A stretch of 64,000 bases of DNA from Dehalococcoidia bacterium (GTDB lineage: Bacteria; Chloroflexota; Dehalococcoidia; Lucifugimonadales; UBA1123). Below, one piece after another: positions 12,521-63,914 of this stretch (the first letter of the stretch is position 1; each line of letters opens with the position of its first letter). Position numbers and translations under genes: made by a program. The notes below the pieces were generated by a model that worked only from the letters and a program-made list of their open reading frames with translations, was not told the DNA's origin and searched no databases. The stretch spans positions 2,722,491 through 2,786,490 of the forward strand of contig OZ243978.1 of assembly GCA_965214745.1 (NCBI GenBank), given 5' to 3'.

Positions 12521-13243
12521 CTACGGCGCCGCCGCGTCTGTGGCGTCTGTCTCAGCGGAGAGGCGCAAGTCGAAGATTCGGCGGCGAACCTCGAACGCGA
12601 AGCCGGGCATCACGGATTCGCCCGATACGGTCTCAGGATATTCCAGAATCTCAGGCTCGGCGTCGGGGCGGTAGACGTGGACTTGCCGTCGATAGAGGTC
12701 TATCAGCCAGCCGAGCCGCGCGCCGTTGGCGATGTAGCGCCTCATCTTGTCGCGCAGAGGGGGAAGCCTGTCTGTGCTGGAAACTATCTCCGCGACGAAG
12801 GCGGGGCAGAATCTGATTGCGCCGCCCTCGGCTATCGGCGGATGCTCCGCCATCTGCTCCGCCGACAGCCAAGCCGCGTCGGGGCGAGGGCGAGACCCGT
12901 CCGGCAGGCGCGCTATGGCGCCCGCCCCGACAGCGCAGCCCCCGTGCCTTCTCGCCCACCAGTTCAAATCAGTACTCAGCTCCACTTCCGCCTTTGCGCT
13001 GTCGAAGTTCGACATGGGGTTTATCGCTAGCTCCCCGCCGCAGGTTAGCTCTAGGTAGAAGCCACGCTCCTCGTTGGCGCGGTCGAGTCTCTCGAACCAG
13101 CTGTCTATCTCGTCGTCCGCGAGCAAGCCCGCGACGGATTCCAGCATGGGGCGGATGTCGACGAAGAGGGTGCGCGACAGGGGGAAGTCGTCAGCATCCT
13201 CGACGACGGTGGGAGCGGCTTTCGGCAACGCGGCGGTGGTCAT
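12521..13243 (-). CDS. Uma2-family (DUF820) putative endonuclease
   Basis: 240 aa. PD-(D/E)xK-like core ...RPDAAWLS...PAFVAEIVSSTDRLPPLRDKMRRYIANGARLGWLIDLYRRQVHVYRPD. Confidence 0.75.
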   Translation of the reverse strand: MTTAALPKAAPTVVEDADDFPLSRTLFVDIRPMLESVAGLLADDEIDSWFERLDRANEERGFYLELTCGGELAINPMSNFDSAKAEVELSTDLNWWARRHGGCAVGAGAIARLPDGSRPRPDAAWLSAEQMAEHPPIAEGGAIRFCPAFVAEIVSSTDRLPPLRDKMRRYIANGARLGWLIDLYRRQVHVYRPDAEPEILEYPETVSGESVMPGFAFEVRRRIFDLRLSAETDATDAAAP

Positions 13244-13360
13244 GTACGCGCAATTCCTTCATGAGCAAAAGCCCGCGACGGGATCCCCGTTATGGGGCGG
13301 GCATCGAAGCGATTCTGCGGTTCGAGGAGGTTGCGGATGAGCAGCCGCGCCAACCGCCTG

Positions 13361-14433
13361 TCAGTCTTCCGACTCTACGAGAACCCTGCGAGTCCGCAAC
13401 GGGATGTCGGCGCGGATATCCACTGGCAGCGAGTCGTAGGTTTCCAGCAGCCTCTCTACCAACTCATATGGACCCCAGAGCCGTATCTGGAAGAACGAGC
13501 GCTCGTTTTCTTTGCGGACCGCGCTGGTAAAGTCCGCCAAGCTGACCAACAGCCCGTACTGCGCTCCGAAGCCCTGAATGTTCCCTTGCAGCCGATTGTA
13601 GTCGGGCAATCCAATCGGAGCGGCGCCGGACTTGACCTGAACGCACAGCCTAGGCTCGCCGAAACCCATATCGCCCATGCCCGCCACGACGTCGATGCCG
13701 CCATCGGGACCTAGCCTTGTCTGAGCGGCGCTGTAACCGGACGCCTTCAGTATCTCCGCGACCAAGTACTCCAGCCGCGTTCCCGGAAATCTTTGCCTGA
13801 TTCTCTGGACGATGCGGTCTTCGATCTGCTCGTCCAAGTTGCTGTCAGGGACGTCGTCGTCGGGAATGAGTGTCTGCGGTTCGGACTCGATTGTCGGCTG
13901 CTCAGATGCCGGCTGCCCGTCTAAATGGGCGTTTACGACCCTTTCGATTCGAGATGCCGCGTTGTCTATATTGACCCTGAACACGGTGCGCCTGTAGCCA
14001 AACGAGGAGAGCAGGTCCTGGTCGAAATTCGGGCGAGGCACATCGGACACCCGCCAATCTACTCTGCGAATGTGGGGGACGCGGGTATCTGCTAGGTAGG
14101 GGCAGTCGGGGCGGTAGAGGTAACCGCCGGCGACTCGTCCGACCGCAACCACCCTCGGGGTTTTCCTAGGCAGAACGACCATATCGCCGTTCTCTATCTC
14201 GTTGGCGAATCGCCAAAGCTGCCCCGCCGCCGTCGACACCTGATGGGCGCTTGCGGCAGGCTTCGAGCTGGACAGACACTCGCGCAGCTCGTTCATGTCA
14301 GCGAAGTCCGCGACGCTTCGCCAAAATTCGTAGCGATCGCCGCAATGCCCTCCTGGAGAACGAATTCTTCGAGCGCTAGTCCTCGTTTTCGTCCTTCATT
14401 TCCGCCGCTCGCTCTGACAACCCAAACGTTCAT
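13361..14433 (-). pseudogene. Mrr-type restriction endonuclease (COG4127-like N-terminal domain + Mrr_cat), copy A, N-terminus frameshifted
   Basis: ORF 13361..14296 carries Mrr_cat motifs (GPDGGIDVVAG...LCVQVKSG...LLVSLADFTS). The first ~46 codons (ATG 14433, MNVWVVRASGG...) are in another frame and end at a TGA overlapping ATG 14296. Compared with copy B there is a 1-nt deletion (atcgctacg versus atcggctacg) and a 21-nt insertion. Confidence 0.65.
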
Positions 14434-14458
14434 TCCGTTCATCTCCCCCGATTCGGCG

Positions 14459-14559
14459 TCAGTTGGCGGGCGCGGCTGCGGGCGGGCTGCCGAAGATGTC
14501 GGCGAACTGCTCCCCTTCGATGGTTTCGTTCTCGATGAGGTAGTTGGATACGTGTTCTA
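14459..14559 (-). pseudogene. duplicated 3' fragment of ftsH (last ~33 codons plus stop)
   Basis: Encodes ...[32 protein letters not shown]. By eye the nucleotides are identical to the real ftsH 3' end at 15118..15218. Confidence 0.8.
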
Positions 14560-15093
14560 AATGAGTGTCTGCGGTTCGGACTCGATTGCCGGCTGCCCGT
14601 CCAAATGGGCGTTTACGACCCTTTCGATTCGAGATGCCGCGTTGTCTATATTGACCCTGAACACGGTGCGCCTGCCGCCAAACGAGGAGAGCAGGTCCTG
14701 ATCGAAATTCGGGCGAGGCACGTCGGACACCCGCCAATCTACGCTACGAATGTGGGGGACGCGAGTGTCTGCTAGGTAGGGGCAGTCGGGGCGGTAGAGG
14801 TAACCGCCGGCGACCCGTCCGACCGCAACCACCCTCGGCTTTTTCCTAGGCAGAACGACCATATCGCCGTTCTCTATCTCGTTGGCGAACCGCCAAAGCT
14901 GCCCCACCGCCGTCGACACCTGACGGGCGCTTGCGGCGGGCTTCGAGCTGGACAGACACTCACGCAGCTCGTTCACGTCAGCGAAGTCCGCAACGCTCCG
15001 CCAAAAGCCGTAGCCGATCGCCGCAATGCCCTCCTGAAGAACGAATTCTTCTAGTCCTCCATCTCCGCCCGCTCTGACGACCCAAACGTTCAT
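14557..15093 (-). pseudogene. Mrr-type restriction endonuclease copy B: intact N-terminal domain, nuclease domain missing (truncated at duplication junction)
   Basis: 178-aa ORF MNVWVVRAGGDGGLEEFVLQEGIAAIGYGFWRS...IESEPQTLI*. Collinear with copy A residues but stops (TAG 14557-14559) exactly where the repeat unit ends. No Mrr_cat domain. Confidence 0.6.
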
Positions 15094-15117
15094 TCCGTTA
15101 TCTCCCCCGATTCGGCG

Positions 15118-16935
15118 TCAGTTGGCGGGCGCGGCTGCGGGCGGGCTGCCGAAGATGTCGGCGAACTGCTCCCCTTCGATGGTTTCGTTCTCGATGAGGT
15201 AGTTGGATACGTGCTCTAGGCGAGCCTTGTTGTCCGTCAGGATGCTCATGGCGGTTTCGTACGCGCCGCCTATGAGGGAGTGAACTTCGTCGTCTATCTG
15301 CTCCGCGATGCTGTCGGAGTAGTCGCGCTGTTCGGAGATCTCGCGTCCGAGGAACACCAGCTCATCGCGCTTGCCGAAGGTGCGCGGGCCTAGCTTGTCG
15401 CTCATGCCGAAGCGGGTAACCATCGTGCGCGCGATGTTCGTCGCCTGCTCTAAGTCGTTGCTGGCGCCGGTGGTGACTTCGCCGAACACTAGCTCTTCAG
15501 CCGCCCTGCCGCCCATCGCCATGGCGAGCCGCGCTTCGAGCTGATCGCTGGTTATCAAGGTGCGGTCTTCTTCTGGCATCGTCTTGGTGTAGCCGCCCGC
15601 CTGCCCGCGCGCGATGATGGTCACTTTGGCTACCGGATCGGCGTCCGGGAGCATGTGTGCGACGACGGCGTGCCCCGCCTCGTGGTAGGCGGTAACCGCC
15701 TTCTCGCGGTCGCTGATGACGCGGCTTCGGCGCTCAGGACCCGCGGTGACGCGGTCTATGCTCTCGGAGAACTCCGAGAAGCCAATCAGCTTCTTGTCGC
15801 GGCGGGCGGTGAGGATAGCAGCCTCGTTCACCAAGTTGGCGAGGTCGGCGCCGCTGAAGCCCACCGTCTGCTTAGCCACACGCTCCAAGTCCACATCCTC
15901 GTCCAGAGGCTTGCCGTTGGAGTGAACCTTGAGGATAGCCTCACGCCCGCGAACGTCTGGGTTGTCTATTATCACGCGGCGGTCGAACCTGCCGGGGCGC
16001 AGCAGCGCGGGGTCTAGGATGTCCGGGCGGTTCGTAGCCGCCATGACGATGACGTTAGAGCCGGTGTCGAAGCCGTCCATCTCGACCAGAATCTGGTTCA
16101 GCGTCTGCTCCCGCTCGTCGTGTCCGCCGCCCAGACCCGCGCCGCGGTGTCTGCCCACGGCGTCTATCTCGTCCACGAACACGATGCAAGGCGAGTTGCG
16201 CTTGGCTTGGTCGAACAGGTCTCGAACGCGGCTTGCGCCCACGCCTACGAACATCTCGACGAACTCGGAGCCGCTTATGTTGAAGAACGGCACACCCGCT
16301 TCGCCCGCGACCGCGCGCGCCATGAGCGTTTTGCCGGTGCCGGGGGGGCCAACCAGCAGAACGCCTTTGGGTATCTTCGCGCCCAGCGCTAGGAATCGCT
16401 CCGGGAATTTCAGGAACTCGACGACTTCCTGAAGCTCCTCTTTAGCTTCTTCGACGCCAGCGACGTCCGAGAAGCTCACGTCTGGGCTGTTGCCCATCAT
16501 CATGCGCGCGCGGCTGCGCCCGAAACTGAAGGTCTGGTTGGAGTTGCCCTGCGCCTGCCGCATCATGAACAGCAGGATAGCGGCGAAGAGGATGAGCGGC
16601 AGGAAGTTGAACATCAGCCCCAAGAAAGTCGATAAGCCGCTCTGCCCTCTCGGTTCGATGCTCACGTTGGCGTTCACCATGTCCACGCCCGCTTGCTGGA
16701 GTATCCCGACAATGGTGGAGCCGGACTCTTTGCGAGCGGCGAGCGCCTCGCCTGAGCGCGTTATGACCGTGAGCGAGTCTCCCTTGACCTCGATGGTTTC
16801 AACGTCGCCGCGCTTGGTCATGGCGATGACTTCGTTGATGGAGATTTCCCGCCCGCCGACGGCGCTGGAAAGCAGGTTGAATGCAATTGCGGTTATGGCT
16901 ACGACTATAAGCAGGTATATGAGGGTCTTCCGCAT
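15118..16935 (-). CDS. ftsH: ATP-dependent zinc metalloprotease FtsH
   Basis: Start set at [14 protein letters not shown] (16935; alternative 16971). Walker A GPPGTGKT, Walker [12 protein letters not shown] region, zinc site HEAGHAV. The 898-aa tracked ORF is an artefactual upstream extension. Confidence 0.93.
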
Positions 16936-58934: not shown

Positions 58935-59122
58935 CTAACGCGGATTCTGTGTCAGCGCAGTATACAACATAGGCGGCTAGGCTTCGGGGGGATTGCTGCG
59001 AGCGAGCTTCGGAGTCTTGCCCCGCCCCGCTCGGTATCATTGAGCTTCGCCGCGCTCGTCCATTATAGTTATAATCTCTCGTAGACTGTCGGATCGAGTA
59101 CAATGGTGCCTTTTGCGATACT

Positions 59123-59142
59123 CCCCCCCCCCCCCCCCCCCC
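59123..59142 (+). repeat. poly(C) homopolymer, 20 nt
   Basis: Read directly: ctCCCCCCCCCCCCCCCCCCCCgcgg. Lies 16 nt upstream of the TTG start at 59159 and 17 nt downstream of ATG 59103-59105. Confidence 0.95.
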
Positions 59143-59158
59143 GCGGCTCTGGAATAAA

Positions 59159-60622
59159 TTGGCCAAGCTGACATTCGCGGCTCTGCTTGTCGCGCTTGCC
59201 TTCAGCATAACTTACACCTCATCCGCGACAGCGTTTTCCGACTACGATCTCAGGCAAATCATCCTATTCGGCGCCGCCGTCAACGCCGCTCTCCTGCTCG
59301 GAGCGCTGCTCCTGCCGCGCCCCAGAGTCGACGCCGCCGTCCTGTCGCTGATAGTTCTGGCGGGCGTGGGCACGGCGCACGTCGTTCACACCGACATCTA
59401 TCTTGGCGGCAGCCGCGTGGTTCTCGTTCTGTTGTGCGTCGCGCTATATTTCGGGCTGTTCACCGCCTTTCGCGCCATAGACGATCTACGCTGGGGCGGC
59501 GCGGCGTTCTCGGCGGCGACGCTTCTGGCGCTTGCGGCTGTCGTAGTCCCCCACTGGGCGGGCGGCGCCGGCACAGTGGAAGGAGATACGTCGAACATTC
59601 GAGAAATCACATTCCAAGAGACGCCGAATCTGTATTTCGTCTCTTTCGAGTCATTGGCGCCAATATCTCTGCTCGACAAACACATGGGTTTAGAAACCAC
59701 CAAATTTCACGATGTTTTCGAGTCGAACTTCCGCCGTTTTCCTAATTTCTTCGCCGACCTATCCTCCACAGAGGCTTCCCTCAACTCGCTTCTGTCGTTG
59801 GAAGTAGATGTGTACAGTTCGTTGCGCCGAGAGTTGCACAGTCGGGGCTACGATTCTAATCCGTACCTCTTCGCTGGCCAAAATCCCAGCCCATTGCTGG
59901 GAATCCTGCGTAAAAACGGCTATGAAACCACCACGGCATACGGTACCTTCTACTTTGGAAAGCGCAAAGGCGCTTATGTCGATAACTACTTCGTATCCCA
60001 GAAAAACTCCGTCTGCAATTTATTGGACGCCGAGGCGCGAAATCTGGCTTTCTGGGGATACTGCCAATTCTTCGACGGAGGTTTTGTCCGGGACGCTCCC
60101 ATAATCGAGCATATCGCGAAAGTGTACGACAACGACAAGCCTCAATTCGTGATGGCGCATCTGTCCGTGCCGGGGCATACGGGAAAATCTTTCAGGCACG
60201 ACGATACGGAACATCTGGAAGAATTCAGGCTTTGGTACAGCAGTAGGATCGAAGAAAGAGCTGTCAGCTATCTGGAGCCAATCATCCAGAATTTGGAAGA
60301 AAACGACCCCAGCGCCATCCTGTTAGTGTACGGCGATCATGGACCAATTCTGTCAAGAGGCGTGGAGTTCGAGGACAACCCGGAGTTCGTCGTTCAGGAC
60401 AAGTATGGCATTCTAGGCGGCGTCTATCCCTCCGACGCCTGCGCCGTTTGGTTCGACGAAGCATCGGCGCAAGGCTACATGACTATCTTGAATGCCGTTC
60501 ACGCCCTGCTTCGCTGCCTGTCCGGCGGTGAAAGCGCGCTTGTCGAACCGCTGAAGCACAGGCTGGGCCGGTATAGTTCAATTCCCAACAATCTTGACTA
60601 CAAGGAGTTTGTGTATGAATGA
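59159..60622 (+). CDS. membrane-anchored sulfatase-like / alkaline-phosphatase-superfamily protein (LtaS/EptA-like)
   Basis: 487 aa, TTG start, ~5 N-terminal TM segments. Then NLYFVSFESLAP, STEASLNSLLS, MAHLSVPGH, LLVYGDHGP motifs. Visibly lower GC than the flanks. Confidence 0.6.
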   Translation: MAKLTFAALLVALAFSITYTSSATAFSDYDLRQIILFGAAVNAALLLGALLLPRPRVDAAVLSLIVLAGVGTAHVVHTDIYLGGSRVVLVLLCVALYFGLFTAFRAIDDLRWGGAAFSAATLLALAAVVVPHWAGGAGTVEGDTSNIREITFQETPNLYFVSFESLAPISLLDKHMGLETTKFHDVFESNFRRFPNFFADLSSTEASLNSLLSLEVDVYSSLRRELHSRGYDSNPYLFAGQNPSPLLGILRKNGYETTTAYGTFYFGKRKGAYVDNYFVSQKNSVCNLLDAEARNLAFWGYCQFFDGGFVRDAPIIEHIAKVYDNDKPQFVMAHLSVPGHTGKSFRHDDTEHLEEFRLWYSSRIEERAVSYLEPIIQNLEENDPSAILLVYGDHGPILSRGVEFEDNPEFVVQDKYGILGGVYPSDACAVWFDEASAQGYMTILNAVHALLRCLSGGESALVEPLKHRLGRYSSIPNNLDYKEFVYE

Positions 60623-60824
60623 GTCGCCGACAATCATCCTCGCCTACGTAGACCCCGGCGCCGCCGGCTTCATCGTAGTATCCGTTCTGGGCTTCTTGGC
60701 TGCGATTGGATACACCATTCGTTCGCACTTCGCGCGCCTCAAAGCGCTCGTATTCCGCAGCGCCCGAAACGGGAGCGAAGACACGGCTGCCGACACGGAA
60801 CGCGAGCCGCGCGTTGGCGCCTGA
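60615..60824 (+). CDS. small membrane protein (hypothetical)
   Basis: 69 aa from ATG 60615, overlapping the stop of the upstream gene (ATGAATGA). MNESPTIILAYVDPGAAGFIVVSVLGFLAAIGY..., one TM helix. Confidence 0.4.
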   Translation: MNESPTIILAYVDPGAAGFIVVSVLGFLAAIGYTIRSHFARLKALVFRSARNGSEDTAADTEREPRVGA

Positions 60825-62244
60825 CATCGAGCCGGACGCCGGCTCGTTCAAGGACCCGGCGGGGCGGGTGTACCGCGTCTCCGGCGAATCGGGCTGCGAA
60901 CGCATCGTTCGCGGCCTGAATCGGGACGCGGCCTCGACGATTCGACGGCTGCTCGCCGAGCCGTTCTTCAGGGAGCTGATTGCCGACGGCAGCGTCGTCG
61001 CTACCCGTCTGCTCGACGCCGAGCGCGCGGATGTTCAGCGCATACTGGCGGACGGCTGGAGCGCGGCGGTGGAGCACGAGCCGCTGGACTTCATTACCTA
61101 CCCTTACGAGTGGGCGTTCTCGATGCTCAGGGACGCGGCTCTGCTTCAGCTGCGCCTGCTGAAAGCGAGCGTTCGGAACGGCTGGACGCTCAAAGACGCC
61201 ACGCCCTTCAACATCCAGTGGGCGGGCGCTCGCCCCGTGTTCATAGACGCGCCGTCGTTCGTCCCGCGGGATGACGGCGAATACTGGCGCGGCTACCGCC
61301 AGTTCTGCGCGATGTTTCTTACGCCCCTTCTGCTGACCGCGCATCTGGGCATACCGTTCCAACCGCTGCTTCGCTCGCGGCTCGAAGGCATCCCGCCGGA
61401 TGAGGCGGCAAGATACTTCTACGGACTGCGGCGATTCAAGCGCGGCGTCATGTCTCACATCTGGTTTCCCGCCAAAGCCGAGAGCCGCGCCCGGCGGCGC
61501 GGGAGCGATGAACGCCGCCCGCGCGCGCGCAGGCGCCGCCGCCGACAGCCGAAGACGAATCTGCTGGCTCTTCTGGACAGCCTAGAGAGGCTCGTCGCCA
61601 AGCTCTCTTACGGACGAACGCGCTCGGACTGGGCGCGGTACGCCTCGACCCACTCCTACGAGGAAGCGGACTTCGAGCTAAAGAGGGGCTTCGTTCTGCG
61701 TCACATAGAGTCGCGCCGTCCGCGTCTGACGTGGGACTTGGGCGCGAACACGGGTGAAATATCGCGCGTAGCAGCCCAGCATTCGGGAACCGTCGTAGCG
61801 GTGGACGCGGACGCGGACGCCGTAGAGCTTCTCTACCGCGAGACGCGGGCGCGCGGACCGCGCAACATCATCCCCCTGGTGATGGACTTGGCGAACCCCT
61901 CGCCGGCGCAGGGTTGGGCTGGCGGCGAGCGCGCGGCGCTCGACCAGCGTCGAAGCCCAGACGCGGCGCTCTGCCTCGCGCTGGTCCATCACATGCGCGT
62001 TTCCGCCAACATCCCCCTGCCGATGTTCATCCAGTGGCTTCGCAGCCTGAACGCGGCTATCGTCTTGGAGTTCGTCGGGCGCGAGGATGAGATGTTCCAG
62101 CGGCTTATCGAAAACAAGGAGGAAGATTACGCCGACTACACCGCGGAGAACTTCGAGGCGGAAATAGGCAAGCGCTTCACAACGCGCGATCGCCTGAAGC
62201 TGAAGGGCGGCTTGCGGGAGCTGTTCTTGCTGGAACCGGTCTGA
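60814..62244 (+). CDS. class I SAM-dependent methyltransferase with N-terminal uncharacterised domain
   Basis: ORF open from 60706. Likely start is TTG 60814 (LAPDIEPDAGSFKDPAGRVYRV...). C-terminal SAM motif I TWDLGANTGEIS and ...VVAVDADADAV. Confidence 0.6.
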   Translation: MAPDIEPDAGSFKDPAGRVYRVSGESGCERIVRGLNRDAASTIRRLLAEPFFRELIADGSVVATRLLDAERADVQRILADGWSAAVEHEPLDFITYPYEWAFSMLRDAALLQLRLLKASVRNGWTLKDATPFNIQWAGARPVFIDAPSFVPRDDGEYWRGYRQFCAMFLTPLLLTAHLGIPFQPLLRSRLEGIPPDEAARYFYGLRRFKRGVMSHIWFPAKAESRARRRGSDERRPRARRRRRRQPKTNLLALLDSLERLVAKLSYGRTRSDWARYASTHSYEEADFELKRGFVLRHIESRRPRLTWDLGANTGEISRVAAQHSGTVVAVDADADAVELLYRETRARGPRNIIPLVMDLANPSPAQGWAGGERAALDQRRSPDAALCLALVHHMRVSANIPLPMFIQWLRSLNAAIVLEFVGREDEMFQRLIENKEEDYADYTAENFEAEIGKRFTTRDRLKLKGGLRELFLLEPV

Positions 62245-62335
62245 TTCCTAGAAAATCGCGCGTGTCAACCCATTTTTCGATACATTTGTGATAAAATTTC
62301 GCCGTCTAGCGTAAAAGCCAGGATGGTGTCCGCCC

Positions 62336-62941
62336 ATGACGGCGCGCTTGGGGCTGAACATAATTCTCGTCGCCGCGATATTTGCCAGCGCGGGCGGCGC
62401 CGCTGCGATTATGCTCCGAGACGCCGGCGCGCAAGACGGGGTTGCGGTGATACTCCCCGAAGCGCCGACAGCGGACTACGCCGACGCGCCAAGCGCGTCT
62501 TCAGCGGCGGCATACGTCTACGTCTCCGGCGAAGTCGCGCTGCCCGGCGTATACCGCATGGAGGACGGCTCCCGCGTATCGGACGCGCTCTCAGCCGCCG
62601 GAGGACCTACGCGAGACGCGAACCTGAACGGCGTGAACCTAGCCGCCAAGCTATCCGACGAGCAGCGGCTACACTTCCCATCTCTGTCCGCATCCGCTCC
62701 CGGCGACACCGCCGCCGCGGCGCGTCCGCTCGCGGCATCCGCAAGCGCCGCCATCGACATCAACACCGCCACTGTCGACGAGCTTCGCGCCCTGCCCGGC
62801 ATCGGCGCCGCGCGCGCGGCGGCAATCGCCGAGCATCGCCGCGCCAATGGGCGGTTCGACAGCGTCGACGAGCTTGCTCAGGTAAACGGCATCGGAGACG
62901 GCATAGTGAATTCTATCCGCAGCCGAGTCGTCGCGCGCTGA
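62336..62941 (+). CDS. comEA: ComEA-family DNA-binding protein (SLBB + tandem helix-hairpin-helix)
   Basis: 201 aa, N-terminal TM segment. VYVSGEVALPGVYRMEDGSRVSDALSAAGG, INTATVDELRALPGIGAARAAAIAEHR..NGRFDSVDELAQVNGIG. Confidence 0.85.
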   Translation: MTARLGLNIILVAAIFASAGGAAAIMLRDAGAQDGVAVILPEAPTADYADAPSASSAAAYVYVSGEVALPGVYRMEDGSRVSDALSAAGGPTRDANLNGVNLAAKLSDEQRLHFPSLSASAPGDTAAAARPLAASASAAIDINTATVDELRALPGIGAARAAAIAEHRRANGRFDSVDELAQVNGIGDGIVNSIRSRVVAR

Positions 62942-62949
62942 GAGCGCCT

Positions 62950-63765
62950 CTACTCCCCGATTATCGGGTACGGCGACAGGTCCGTAATCCCCGCTTCAGC
63001 CAAAACGTCTTCATCGTAGACTATCTTGCCCGTGTAGCTTTGCGGATCGCGCTCGCATATGACAGCGCCCGCGTCGCCCATGATGATGCCGTCTTCCCGC
63101 GCGCCCGCGTAGGGGCGGTCGCCGCGGAACCAGCGCTGACCTTCGGAGGCTATCGCGCCGCGCGGCGAGAGCGCGTTGACCGCGATGTTGTGTTCGTAAA
63201 GCTCGCTCGCCAGCCCCTGCGTGAACCGCTCTAGGTGCGCCTTGCCCGCGCCGTATGCGACGCCGTCGGGCCTAGCCGATTCGTAGGGACCCTCGCCGGG
63301 GCCTATCGCGCCCACCGAGCTGATGTTGACGATATGCCCCCATCCGCGCTCCTTCATGTACGGGATTACCAGCTTGCACCCCAAGAAGGGGCCTCGGATG
63401 TTGACGCGGTATAGCAAGTCCCAATGCCGAACTTGCATCGACTCCACCGCGCCGGGTATCAGGATAGCGGCGTTGTTCACTAGGATGTCGATACGCCCGA
63501 ATTGCTCGGCTGTCCGCTCGAACATCGCGGCTATGTCTTCTTCCCGCGTGACGTCGCATCGGACGCCGACAGCCGTTCCGCCCTCGCCGCGAATGCGCTT
63601 CACCGCGGTTTGGACGCTTCCGGGAATGCGGAAGTCTCCCTCGTTCATCGTGCGCGCCGACACGACGACGCTCGCGCCCTCGCGCGCGAACACGACAGCC
63701 ATATCCCTGCCTATGCCGCGGCTCGCGCCGGTGATTACAGCCACTTTTCCATCCAGCTTGCCCAA
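62950..63765 (-). CDS. SDR-family oxidoreductase
   Basis: 271 aa. GKVAVITGASRGIG, NNAAI, catalytic Y..GAGK. Confidence 0.88.
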   Translation of the reverse strand: MGKLDGKVAVITGASRGIGRDMAVVFAREGASVVVSARTMNEGDFRIPGSVQTAVKRIRGEGGTAVGVRCDVTREEDIAAMFERTAEQFGRIDILVNNAAILIPGAVESMQVRHWDLLYRVNIRGPFLGCKLVIPYMKERGWGHIVNISSVGAIGPGEGPYESARPDGVAYGAGKAHLERFTQGLASELYEHNIAVNALSPRGAIASEGQRWFRGDRPYAGAREDGIIMGDAGAVICERDPQSYTGKIVYDEDVLAEAGITDLSPYPIIGE

Positions 63766-63914
63766 TGTTCGCCTCCTGTGCGTTTCGCATGCACGCGGAG
63801 TCTATTATATCCCGCGTCATTCCGCATGCCATGCCCGTGAATTCCCGCCAACCCATGCAAAACCCCGCCGCGCGGCGTACAATGGCAAGCGCACGACAAC
63901 GCGGGAGGCTCGAT

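Follow-up and report, generated by a model that had tools for sequence, protein, structure and literature searches.

Directly downstream of ftsH, in a 64,000-nucleotide (nt) stretch of the genome of a Dehalococcoidia bacterium (contig OZ243978.1; the whole stretch is referred to below as the window), the 5' part of an mrr-like gene, which encodes a candidate restriction enzyme, occurs twice in tandem, each time preceded by the end of ftsH. This arrangement raises the questions of whether the duplication exists in the cell, how it came about and what it has left of the enzyme. All coordinates are positions in the window, and the genes of the locus are on the minus strand. This defence locus carries an ordinary strain-specific rearrangement, which is probably a genuine segmental tandem duplication, restricted to this strain, that was created by an illegitimate blunt join and has a mosaic history.

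Sequence reading, a repeat finder and pairwise alignments all place two collinear head-to-tail units, which abut directly, at 13865-15218. In gene orientation each unit consists of the last 101 nt of ftsH, a spacer of 24 or 25 nt that contains the GGGGGAGA ribosome-binding site, and the 5' part of the gene encoding the Mrr_cat nuclease. Unit A (13865-14559, minus strand, 695 nt) comprises a relic copy of the ftsH tail, a spacer of 25 nt and the first 569 nt of copy A, the resident mrr-like gene, while unit B (14560-15218, minus strand, 659 nt) is made up of an ftsH tail, a 24-nt spacer and the reader domain of copy B. Outside the outer edges of the two units there is no further similarity. The relic tail (14459-14559, minus strand), which comprises 33 codons and the TGA stop and is non-coding, matches the real tail at 100 of 101 nt with no indels, the single G/A mismatch being at 15214 versus 14555. 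The spacers are identical at 24 of 24 positions and differ by one 1-nt indel. The mrr parts match at 506 of 533 positions (27 substitutions) and are separated by indels of 21, 15 and 1 nt. The 21-nt indel can be aligned as 3+12+6, all in frame, the 15-nt indel corresponds to the residues SEQPT and is likewise in frame, and the 1-nt indel is a frameshift in copy A at 14334/14335. Five amino acid (aa) differences between the copies are located downstream of Met40 (R57H, V63A, K85T, S117R and G140Y) and a further four at or upstream of residue 40 (D11N, G12E, G29E and V40M).

A first-pass annotation made from the sequence had described a head-to-tail duplication that runs from the 3' end of ftsH across the spacer into the N-terminal domain of an Mrr-type gene. 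Pairwise alignment returned exactly the coordinates it gave and bore out its three mrr indels. Some details required correction. The ~100 nt of ftsH that looked identical by eye are nearly, rather than fully, so; the ~25-nt spacer is present in both units as described, with a 1-nt indel that had been omitted; and the count of five aa changes in ~140 residues holds downstream of Met40 but misses the four changes upstream. In the 2.93-Mb genome, units A and B are the sole pair of copies of this sequence, and a repeat of ~650 nt at 92-96% identity cannot have originated by chance. The duplication is inside a single 2.93-Mb contig, ~190 kb from the nearest end, and therefore does not represent an overlap of contig ends.

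At the duplication junction (14559/14560) the mrr linker, ending in gene orientation in CAGACACTCATT, is joined to the ftsH tail, which begins with TAGAACACG. The join reads CTCATT followed immediately by TAGAAC, within the junction-spanning sequence CTCATTTAGAACACG. It is blunt, with 0 nt of microhomology, and creates a TAG codon (14557-14559) that terminates copy B; this truncation, also recognized in the first-pass annotation, is evident both in the sequence and in the list of open reading frames (ORFs). The breakpoint is at residue 178 of the encoded protein, in a linker predicted to be disordered (predicted local distance difference test score, pLDDT, <50 for residues 173-178). A scan of 13200-15400 for promoters and terminators found none.

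The consequences for the three genes involved differ. ftsH (15118-16935, minus strand), whose true 3' end (15118-15218) is inside unit B, is intact and encodes a 605-aa protein with the Pfam domains Peptidase_M41, AAA, AAA_lid_3 and FtsH_ext. Copy B (14557-15093, minus strand) is an open stand-alone ORF of 178 aa, which comprises a complete DUF8426 reader domain and 13 linker residues; it comes straight after ftsH, preceded by the original GGGGGAGA ribosome-binding site, and is without the nuclease domain. Copy A (13361-14433, minus strand) is the resident full-length DUF8426 plus Mrr_cat gene, broken by a 1-nt deletion at codon ~27, where GCGATCAGCTAC in a sister strain (described below) corresponds to GCGATC-GCTAC; the site is outside homopolymers. 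The remnants of copy A are a 49-aa ORF (14293-14442) and a 311-aa ORF (13361-14296), the latter matching Mrr_cat (PF04471) over residues 169-282 at 68.3 bits, against a gathering cut-off of 21 bits. Downstream of the frameshift copy A retains all 29+68 family-conserved columns, the 68 being C-terminal columns. At 14293-14296 (minus strand, within GACATGAAC) the TGA of the 49-aa ORF overlaps the ATG of the 311-aa ORF as ATGA, and termination-reinitiation at this site could still give rise to an N-terminally truncated reader-nuclease protein. As assembled, the strain has no intact reader-nuclease fusion, because copy A is frameshifted and copy B is without the nuclease. An intact ORF joining sensor and nuclease, as expected of an Mrr-family type IV enzyme, is thus not present in the window strain.

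The single-copy state is seen in a sister strain, which was located through the protein cluster (90%) to which the 311-aa ORF belongs. A member of this cluster is the 360-aa protein P0038, whose gene is present on a 139-kb contig of a metagenome-assembled genome and on two metagenome contigs, and all three assemblies have one unit. The gene order in the sister (SBP, ftsH encoding 605 aa, mrr encoding 360 aa, Uma2, LLM oxidoreductase) is that of the window with a single unit, with which unit A is collinear; the flanks are ~98% (97-98%) identical, the intact 360-aa gene is located directly after ftsH, and both parental contexts of the junction are uninterrupted. The two 605-aa FtsH proteins are of equal length and differ at three residues. 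Elsewhere in the genus, eight of 29 other species have an ortholog (46-58% aa identity), which in seven of these eight is directly after ftsH. All of these orthologs are single-copy; the seven frames read are open, with lengths of ~343-356 aa in those checked. None of the 29 other species has a separate reader gene at the locus. The genus relatives and the ~98% identical sister together supply the single-copy state that the first-pass annotation had looked to related genomes for.

The sister also reveals which of the two copies is the resident. Copy A differs from it by 1-2%, equivalent to the background of ~2% in the flanks, plus the 1-nt deletion, while copy B is 4-6.7% divergent. Among the 26 centre positions at which one of the three sequences differs, the sister unit is A-type at 21, and it is A-type for both large indels. 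It shares with copy A a 7-aa loop insertion, E12, E29, M40, T85, R117, Y140 and the SEQPT linker. Because the single unit of the sister is A-type, copy A is taken as the resident; on these site patterns it is the ortholog of the intact sister gene, with copy B as the additional one. Copy B retains the family consensus at G12 (31/33 homologs), G29 (21/33) and G140 (26/33) and in the 13-residue length of the loop (31/34). The view that the reader domain of copy A is decaying, to which G12E, G29E, G140Y and the 7-aa insertion might have pointed, was rejected since the intact sister gene shares all four; the odd residues of copy A are its normal allele because they are common to that gene. V40M as a compensatory new start codon was likewise dismissed, as the sister also has Met at this position.

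How the two copies came to differ was addressed through the nature of the substitutions. Copies A and B differ at 24 codons, 15 by synonymous and nine by non-synonymous changes, over 128.5 synonymous and 399.5 non-synonymous sites, giving a ratio of non-synonymous to synonymous substitution (dN/dS) of ~0.25 (binomial P=8e-5 against neutrality). The synonymous excess and the in-frame 21- and 15-nt indels indicate that most of the A/B divergence built up under purifying selection, in translated and constrained sequence. Relaxed selection on the mrr part, one of two explanations offered in the first-pass annotation, is not supported in view of the 15 versus nine codons, the reading frame of the indels and the residues that copy A has in common with the intact sister gene. 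The relic ftsH tail carries one change, against ~7 expected had the units diverged in place (Poisson P ~0.005), and the unit ends are therefore young or homogenised.

Position within the unit, when A and B alone are compared, gives weak significance to the uneven divergence previously reported (longest identical run of 134 nt, P=0.04; two-breakpoint maximum chi-square, P=0.22). The mosaic case rests not on these positional tests but on the three-way comparison with the sister, in which the site patterns from three taxa, with no close outgroup, represent branch lengths and not rooted trees. In the centre (unit positions 140-599) copy A and the sister agree against copy B at 21 sites, copy B and the sister against copy A at five, and the two copies against the sister at none. 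At the ends (ftsH tail, spacer and distal linker) the respective numbers are four, zero and eight, two of the four sites adjoining an indel. The contrast between centre and ends is significant (Fisher P=3.6e-5), the boundaries between them having been set with the data already in view. Over its central ~450 nt copy B is 4.6-5.7% divergent from copy A and from the sister alike. Because the relative distances reverse, A being closest to B at the ends and closest to the sister in the centre, the data indicate recombination within the unit, either through gene conversion or through allelic import. Partial homogenisation, the other explanation given in the first-pass annotation, gains support from this three-way comparison, and gene conversion demonstrably operates between two ftsH paralogs of this lineage.

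The second of these ftsH genes, 1.2 Mb away (G000:C1 ~1,511,450-1,512,150), is 52-75% identical to the window ftsH over most of its length. In the AAA+ module (window 15835-16535, gene positions ~400-1100) the identity is 86-98% for the window copy and 95-100% for the sister copy, and a 200-nt patch of the sister ftsH that is 10% divergent from the window is 100% identical to the other paralog of the window genome. These observations point to ectopic gene conversion, or concerted evolution, between these paralogs of an essential protease as a process active in the lineage. The two independent short-read metagenome contigs of the sister (L041 and L042; ERZ21849000 NODE_739 and ERZ21848999 NODE_6741) start at the same ftsH base, L040 position 4224, which is the 3' edge of the tract common to the paralog; the assembly graphs probably break at this repeat. 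A donor-type tract in ftsH, which would have supported an anchored import, was sought and none was found, the lone divergent patch being the conversion from the paralog; the 3' 1 kb of ftsH displays background divergence only (1-3.5%) relative to the sister.

The preferred explanation is that a blunt illegitimate join would have connected the interdomain linker of the type IV gene to the upstream ftsH, 101 nt short of the end of the latter. The resulting minus-strand order would be intact ftsH, spacer with ribosome-binding site, truncated copy B, relic tail, second spacer and copy A, in which the 1-nt deletion would be the only break. Either a recent duplication was then followed by replacement of the centre with a diverged allele, or an older duplication would have been lost in the sister and its ends homogenised. 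The existence of the junction in the cell and the order of events are what we infer, and several observations weigh against this explanation. The linkage of the units and the 1-nt deletion are known from the assembly alone, and a blunt join without microhomology is also expected from the unmerged concatenation of two overlapping sequences. No independent assembly contains the junction, the protein collection has copy B from the window genome only, and no full-length B-type allele was found in it, so that the donor of an import is unobserved. Ku was not detected, so a classical non-homologous end joining route to the blunt join is not evident and was discarded as its source. Several of these points would fit an assembly artefact, in which coexisting A-type and B-type strain variants were placed serially while the real genomes have one unit each: besides the blunt junction, the A/B difference is of about the size seen between strains, the one close relative sampled carries a single unit, and no second assembly has copy B or the junction. 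We nevertheless consider an artefact improbable. The site is in a single 2.93-Mb contig far from its ends, the 1.35-kb region is well within the length of long reads, and graph and overlap assemblers need real sequence spanning the junction. The joined sites have no mutual similarity that could have misled an assembler, and diverged tandem repeats are common elsewhere in the genome. Furthermore, at the fastest-evolving positions, in the spacer and distal linker, both units share states unlike the sister, as would two copies in one lineage.

If the duplication is genuine, its age is the main issue. The most economical history, a duplication after the split from the sister followed by import of a diverged centre of ~450-500 nt, either as a B-type patch into copy B or as a sister-like patch into copy A, would leave copy B functionless; it is a possible account, which we put at somewhat short of an even chance. 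It needs two events, the fewest, and no function for copy B. It explains why the A/B ends are near-identical and differ together from the sister at eight sites while the centre of B is distant from both, why the divergence of B is mostly synonymous and in frame, as if accrued in a working full-length gene elsewhere, and why a truncated copy is without decay, as fits a short residence. However, a conceptual full-length B-type query against 5.8 billion clustered proteins retrieved nothing closer than the cluster of copy A and the sister, and copy B, scanned against metagenomes, retrieved nothing but relatives at 30% identity, with no second strain carrying the junction and no B-type allele. The clear recombination patch nearby is an intragenomic conversion from the ftsH paralog, and three sequences without a close outgroup yield branch lengths rather than a rooted succession of events. 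A related route is homology-facilitated illegitimate recombination, in which DNA uptake combines one homologous anchor with one illegitimate join, usually at a few bases of microhomology. It would likewise produce a foreign allele beside the anchor (ftsH), a novel junction and a local duplication, but the locus differs in its 0 nt of microhomology, in having no donor tract in the 3' part of ftsH and in having no known donor allele.

The duplication could instead pre-date the split from the sister, with copy B kept by selection as a 178-aa reader that might, for instance, modulate the nuclease or compete with it. In that case copy B would have retained the ancestral sequence while the reader of the full-length copy evolved faster, the sister would have lost B through recombination between the identical tails, and conversion would have homogenised the ends. 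This older origin, which we regard as rather unlikely, gains from the open frame of copy B with every invariant and near-invariant family residue kept, from its position behind the original ribosome-binding site, from the radical changes (G12E, G29E, G140Y and the loop insertion) being on the allele of A and the sister, from the dN/dS of ~0.25 and from the gene conversion that operates in the lineage. It nevertheless requires a longer series of events, in which duplication and long-term retention are combined with two conversion tracts and a loss in the sister; other public stand-alone DUF8426 ORFs look broken, the other members of the genus are without a separate reader gene at the locus, and the same signature would be produced if the centre of B had evolved in a full-length gene of another strain. 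A more elaborate proposal sees the tandem and frameshift as the OFF state of a switch that recombination can reset, RecA-mediated deletion restoring a chimeric B/A intact gene. Copy B is indeed in frame and in register with copy A and intact upstream of the frameshift of A, and the ~450 nt that follow this frameshift are 95% identical between the units, so any crossover in that stretch would give one open full-length gene. The arrangement, found in one strain only, displays no sign of selection or recurrence, however; there is no site-specific recombinase and there are no inverted repeats, and the frameshift and the duplication are independent mutations, making such a switch extremely unlikely. 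It is very doubtful that the product of copy B is a working stand-alone reader of modified bases, co-transcribed with ftsH, that acts in trans as a competitor or attenuator protecting newly modified host DNA, or that copy B serves as a recombination reservoir; if either were true, the duplication would represent the tuning or resetting of a type IV restriction enzyme and not debris.

A strain-specific tandem duplication with a mosaic history, the explanation favoured here, resembles classical tandem duplications that undergo concerted evolution in its direct repeats, novel join, single-copy relative, patchy divergence and evidence for conversion in the same genome. Typical unstable tandem duplications are usually identical and short-lived. 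In contrast, the unit described here is small, cuts two genes and is without microhomology at the join, and its centre is 5-6% diverged.

Tandem paralog arrays abound in the window genome, as do short head-to-tail repeats, at 80-98% identity. A BLAST comparison of the genome with itself returned 426 repeat pairs of at least 200 nt, including ~20 close-spaced tandem pairs of at least 88% identity; examples of such arrays and repeats in G000:C1 are at 106317-113747, 120331-120730, 382766-383518, 944722-945567, 2275964-2276617 and 2806471-2807358. Several of the genomic tandem pairs are situated where no long ORF spans them. Window 59032-63864 and G000:C1 847579-851048, 1.9 Mb away, contain two dispersed repeats of ~1.7 kb (92% and 96.5% identical), which probably represent pairs of paralogous genes.

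Immediately after ftsH, genomes of the genus have a slot whose defence genes vary. At this slot (window 12521-15117; L003, L004, L015-L022 and L044), ~17 of the 29 species have ftsH without the DUF8426-Mrr_cat gene, and one genome displays the order ftsH, DUF4258, DUF8426-Mrr_cat (449 aa) and a 1153-aa SIR2_2 protein. Downstream of copy A in the window is a Uma2-family gene (12521-13243, minus strand), which is also found in the sister and is absent from this position in the two genomes G018 and G019.

What the duplicated segment encodes was approached through its predicted structure. The N-terminal domain had no match in local Pfam or NCBIfam profile searches and is assigned to PF28530/DUF8426 in precomputed annotations; the Pfam search also gave no match to the winged-helix domain Mrr_N. 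For an AlphaFold2 model of copy B based on 34 homologs, the pLDDT is 91.4 and the predicted template modelling score (pTM) 0.85. When this model was compared with PDB using Foldseek, the top 50 matches were all YTH domains (Mmi1, YTHDF2 and YTHDC2) or EVE-type proteins (PH1033, PSPTO5229 and Atu2648), with probabilities of 0.9-1.0, E values down to 1.6e-4 and TM-scores of only 0.43-0.50. The duplicated 165-residue DUF8426 domain is thus predicted to fold as a PUA-like pseudobarrel of the YTH/EVE type. A sequence search of PDB returned major histocompatibility complex (MHC) class I (E=0.0035) and mannuronan epimerases; these matches are weak and were considered spurious, the fold search being preferred. 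The residues W67, Y98, H114 and W120 do not vary across the 34 DUF8426 homologs, and W4 and F69 hardly vary. Among the homologs (P0009-P0044) DUF8426 is nearly always fused to Mrr_cat. Two stand-alone DUF8426 ORFs (P0003 and P0008) were considered as a natural stand-alone family and rejected: they have aberrant C-termini, one being followed by a faint Mrr_cat fragment, and such public stand-alone ORFs look like truncated or fragmented genes.

Since a PUA-like reader is predicted to be fused to an Mrr_cat nuclease, the gene at this locus has a type IV-like architecture and is a candidate modification-dependent enzyme; more generally, DUF8426 joined to Mrr_cat seems to mark a family of putative modification-dependent restriction enzymes that has yet to be characterised. 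The gene resembles E. coli Mrr in its C-terminal Mrr_cat domain, with a D...QxK-type core that is conserved across the family, and in being solitary, with no adjacent methyltransferase. It differs at the N-terminus, where E. coli Mrr has a winged helix (Mrr_N) and this protein the PUA-like DUF8426, and only the catalytic domain is in common. The pairing of a PUA-superfamily sensor with a nuclease is standard among modification-dependent (type IV) restriction enzymes, and PUA domains are also found fused to Mrr-like catalytic domains (PMC6765204). In enzymes such as the EVE-HNH protein VcaM4I and the TspA15I group (PMC6765204, PMC7897488) an N-terminal PUA-like domain is likewise connected through a flexible linker to a C-terminal nuclease. 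In contrast to these enzymes, the nuclease described here is Mrr_cat (PD-(D/E)XK type) and not HNH, the sensor is DUF8426, which has no sequence-level match to EVE or YTH models, and the gene is frameshifted.

As a small strain-level structural variant through which a single defence gene is inactivated or remodelled, the rearrangement belongs to a common class of events. It provides a worked example in an uncultured marine lineage (SAR202/Dehalococcoidia) of how a sister genome shows odd residues to be the normal allele, and how site patterns reveal recombination or gene conversion within 660 nt. Should the truncated reader turn out to function, it would offer a simple natural example of a restriction-enzyme sensor domain that acts in trans. 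For the wider family, DUF8426 gains a predicted fold and a likely role as a reader of modified bases, and a group of candidate modification-dependent restriction enzymes, DUF8426 plus Mrr_cat, is thereby defined.

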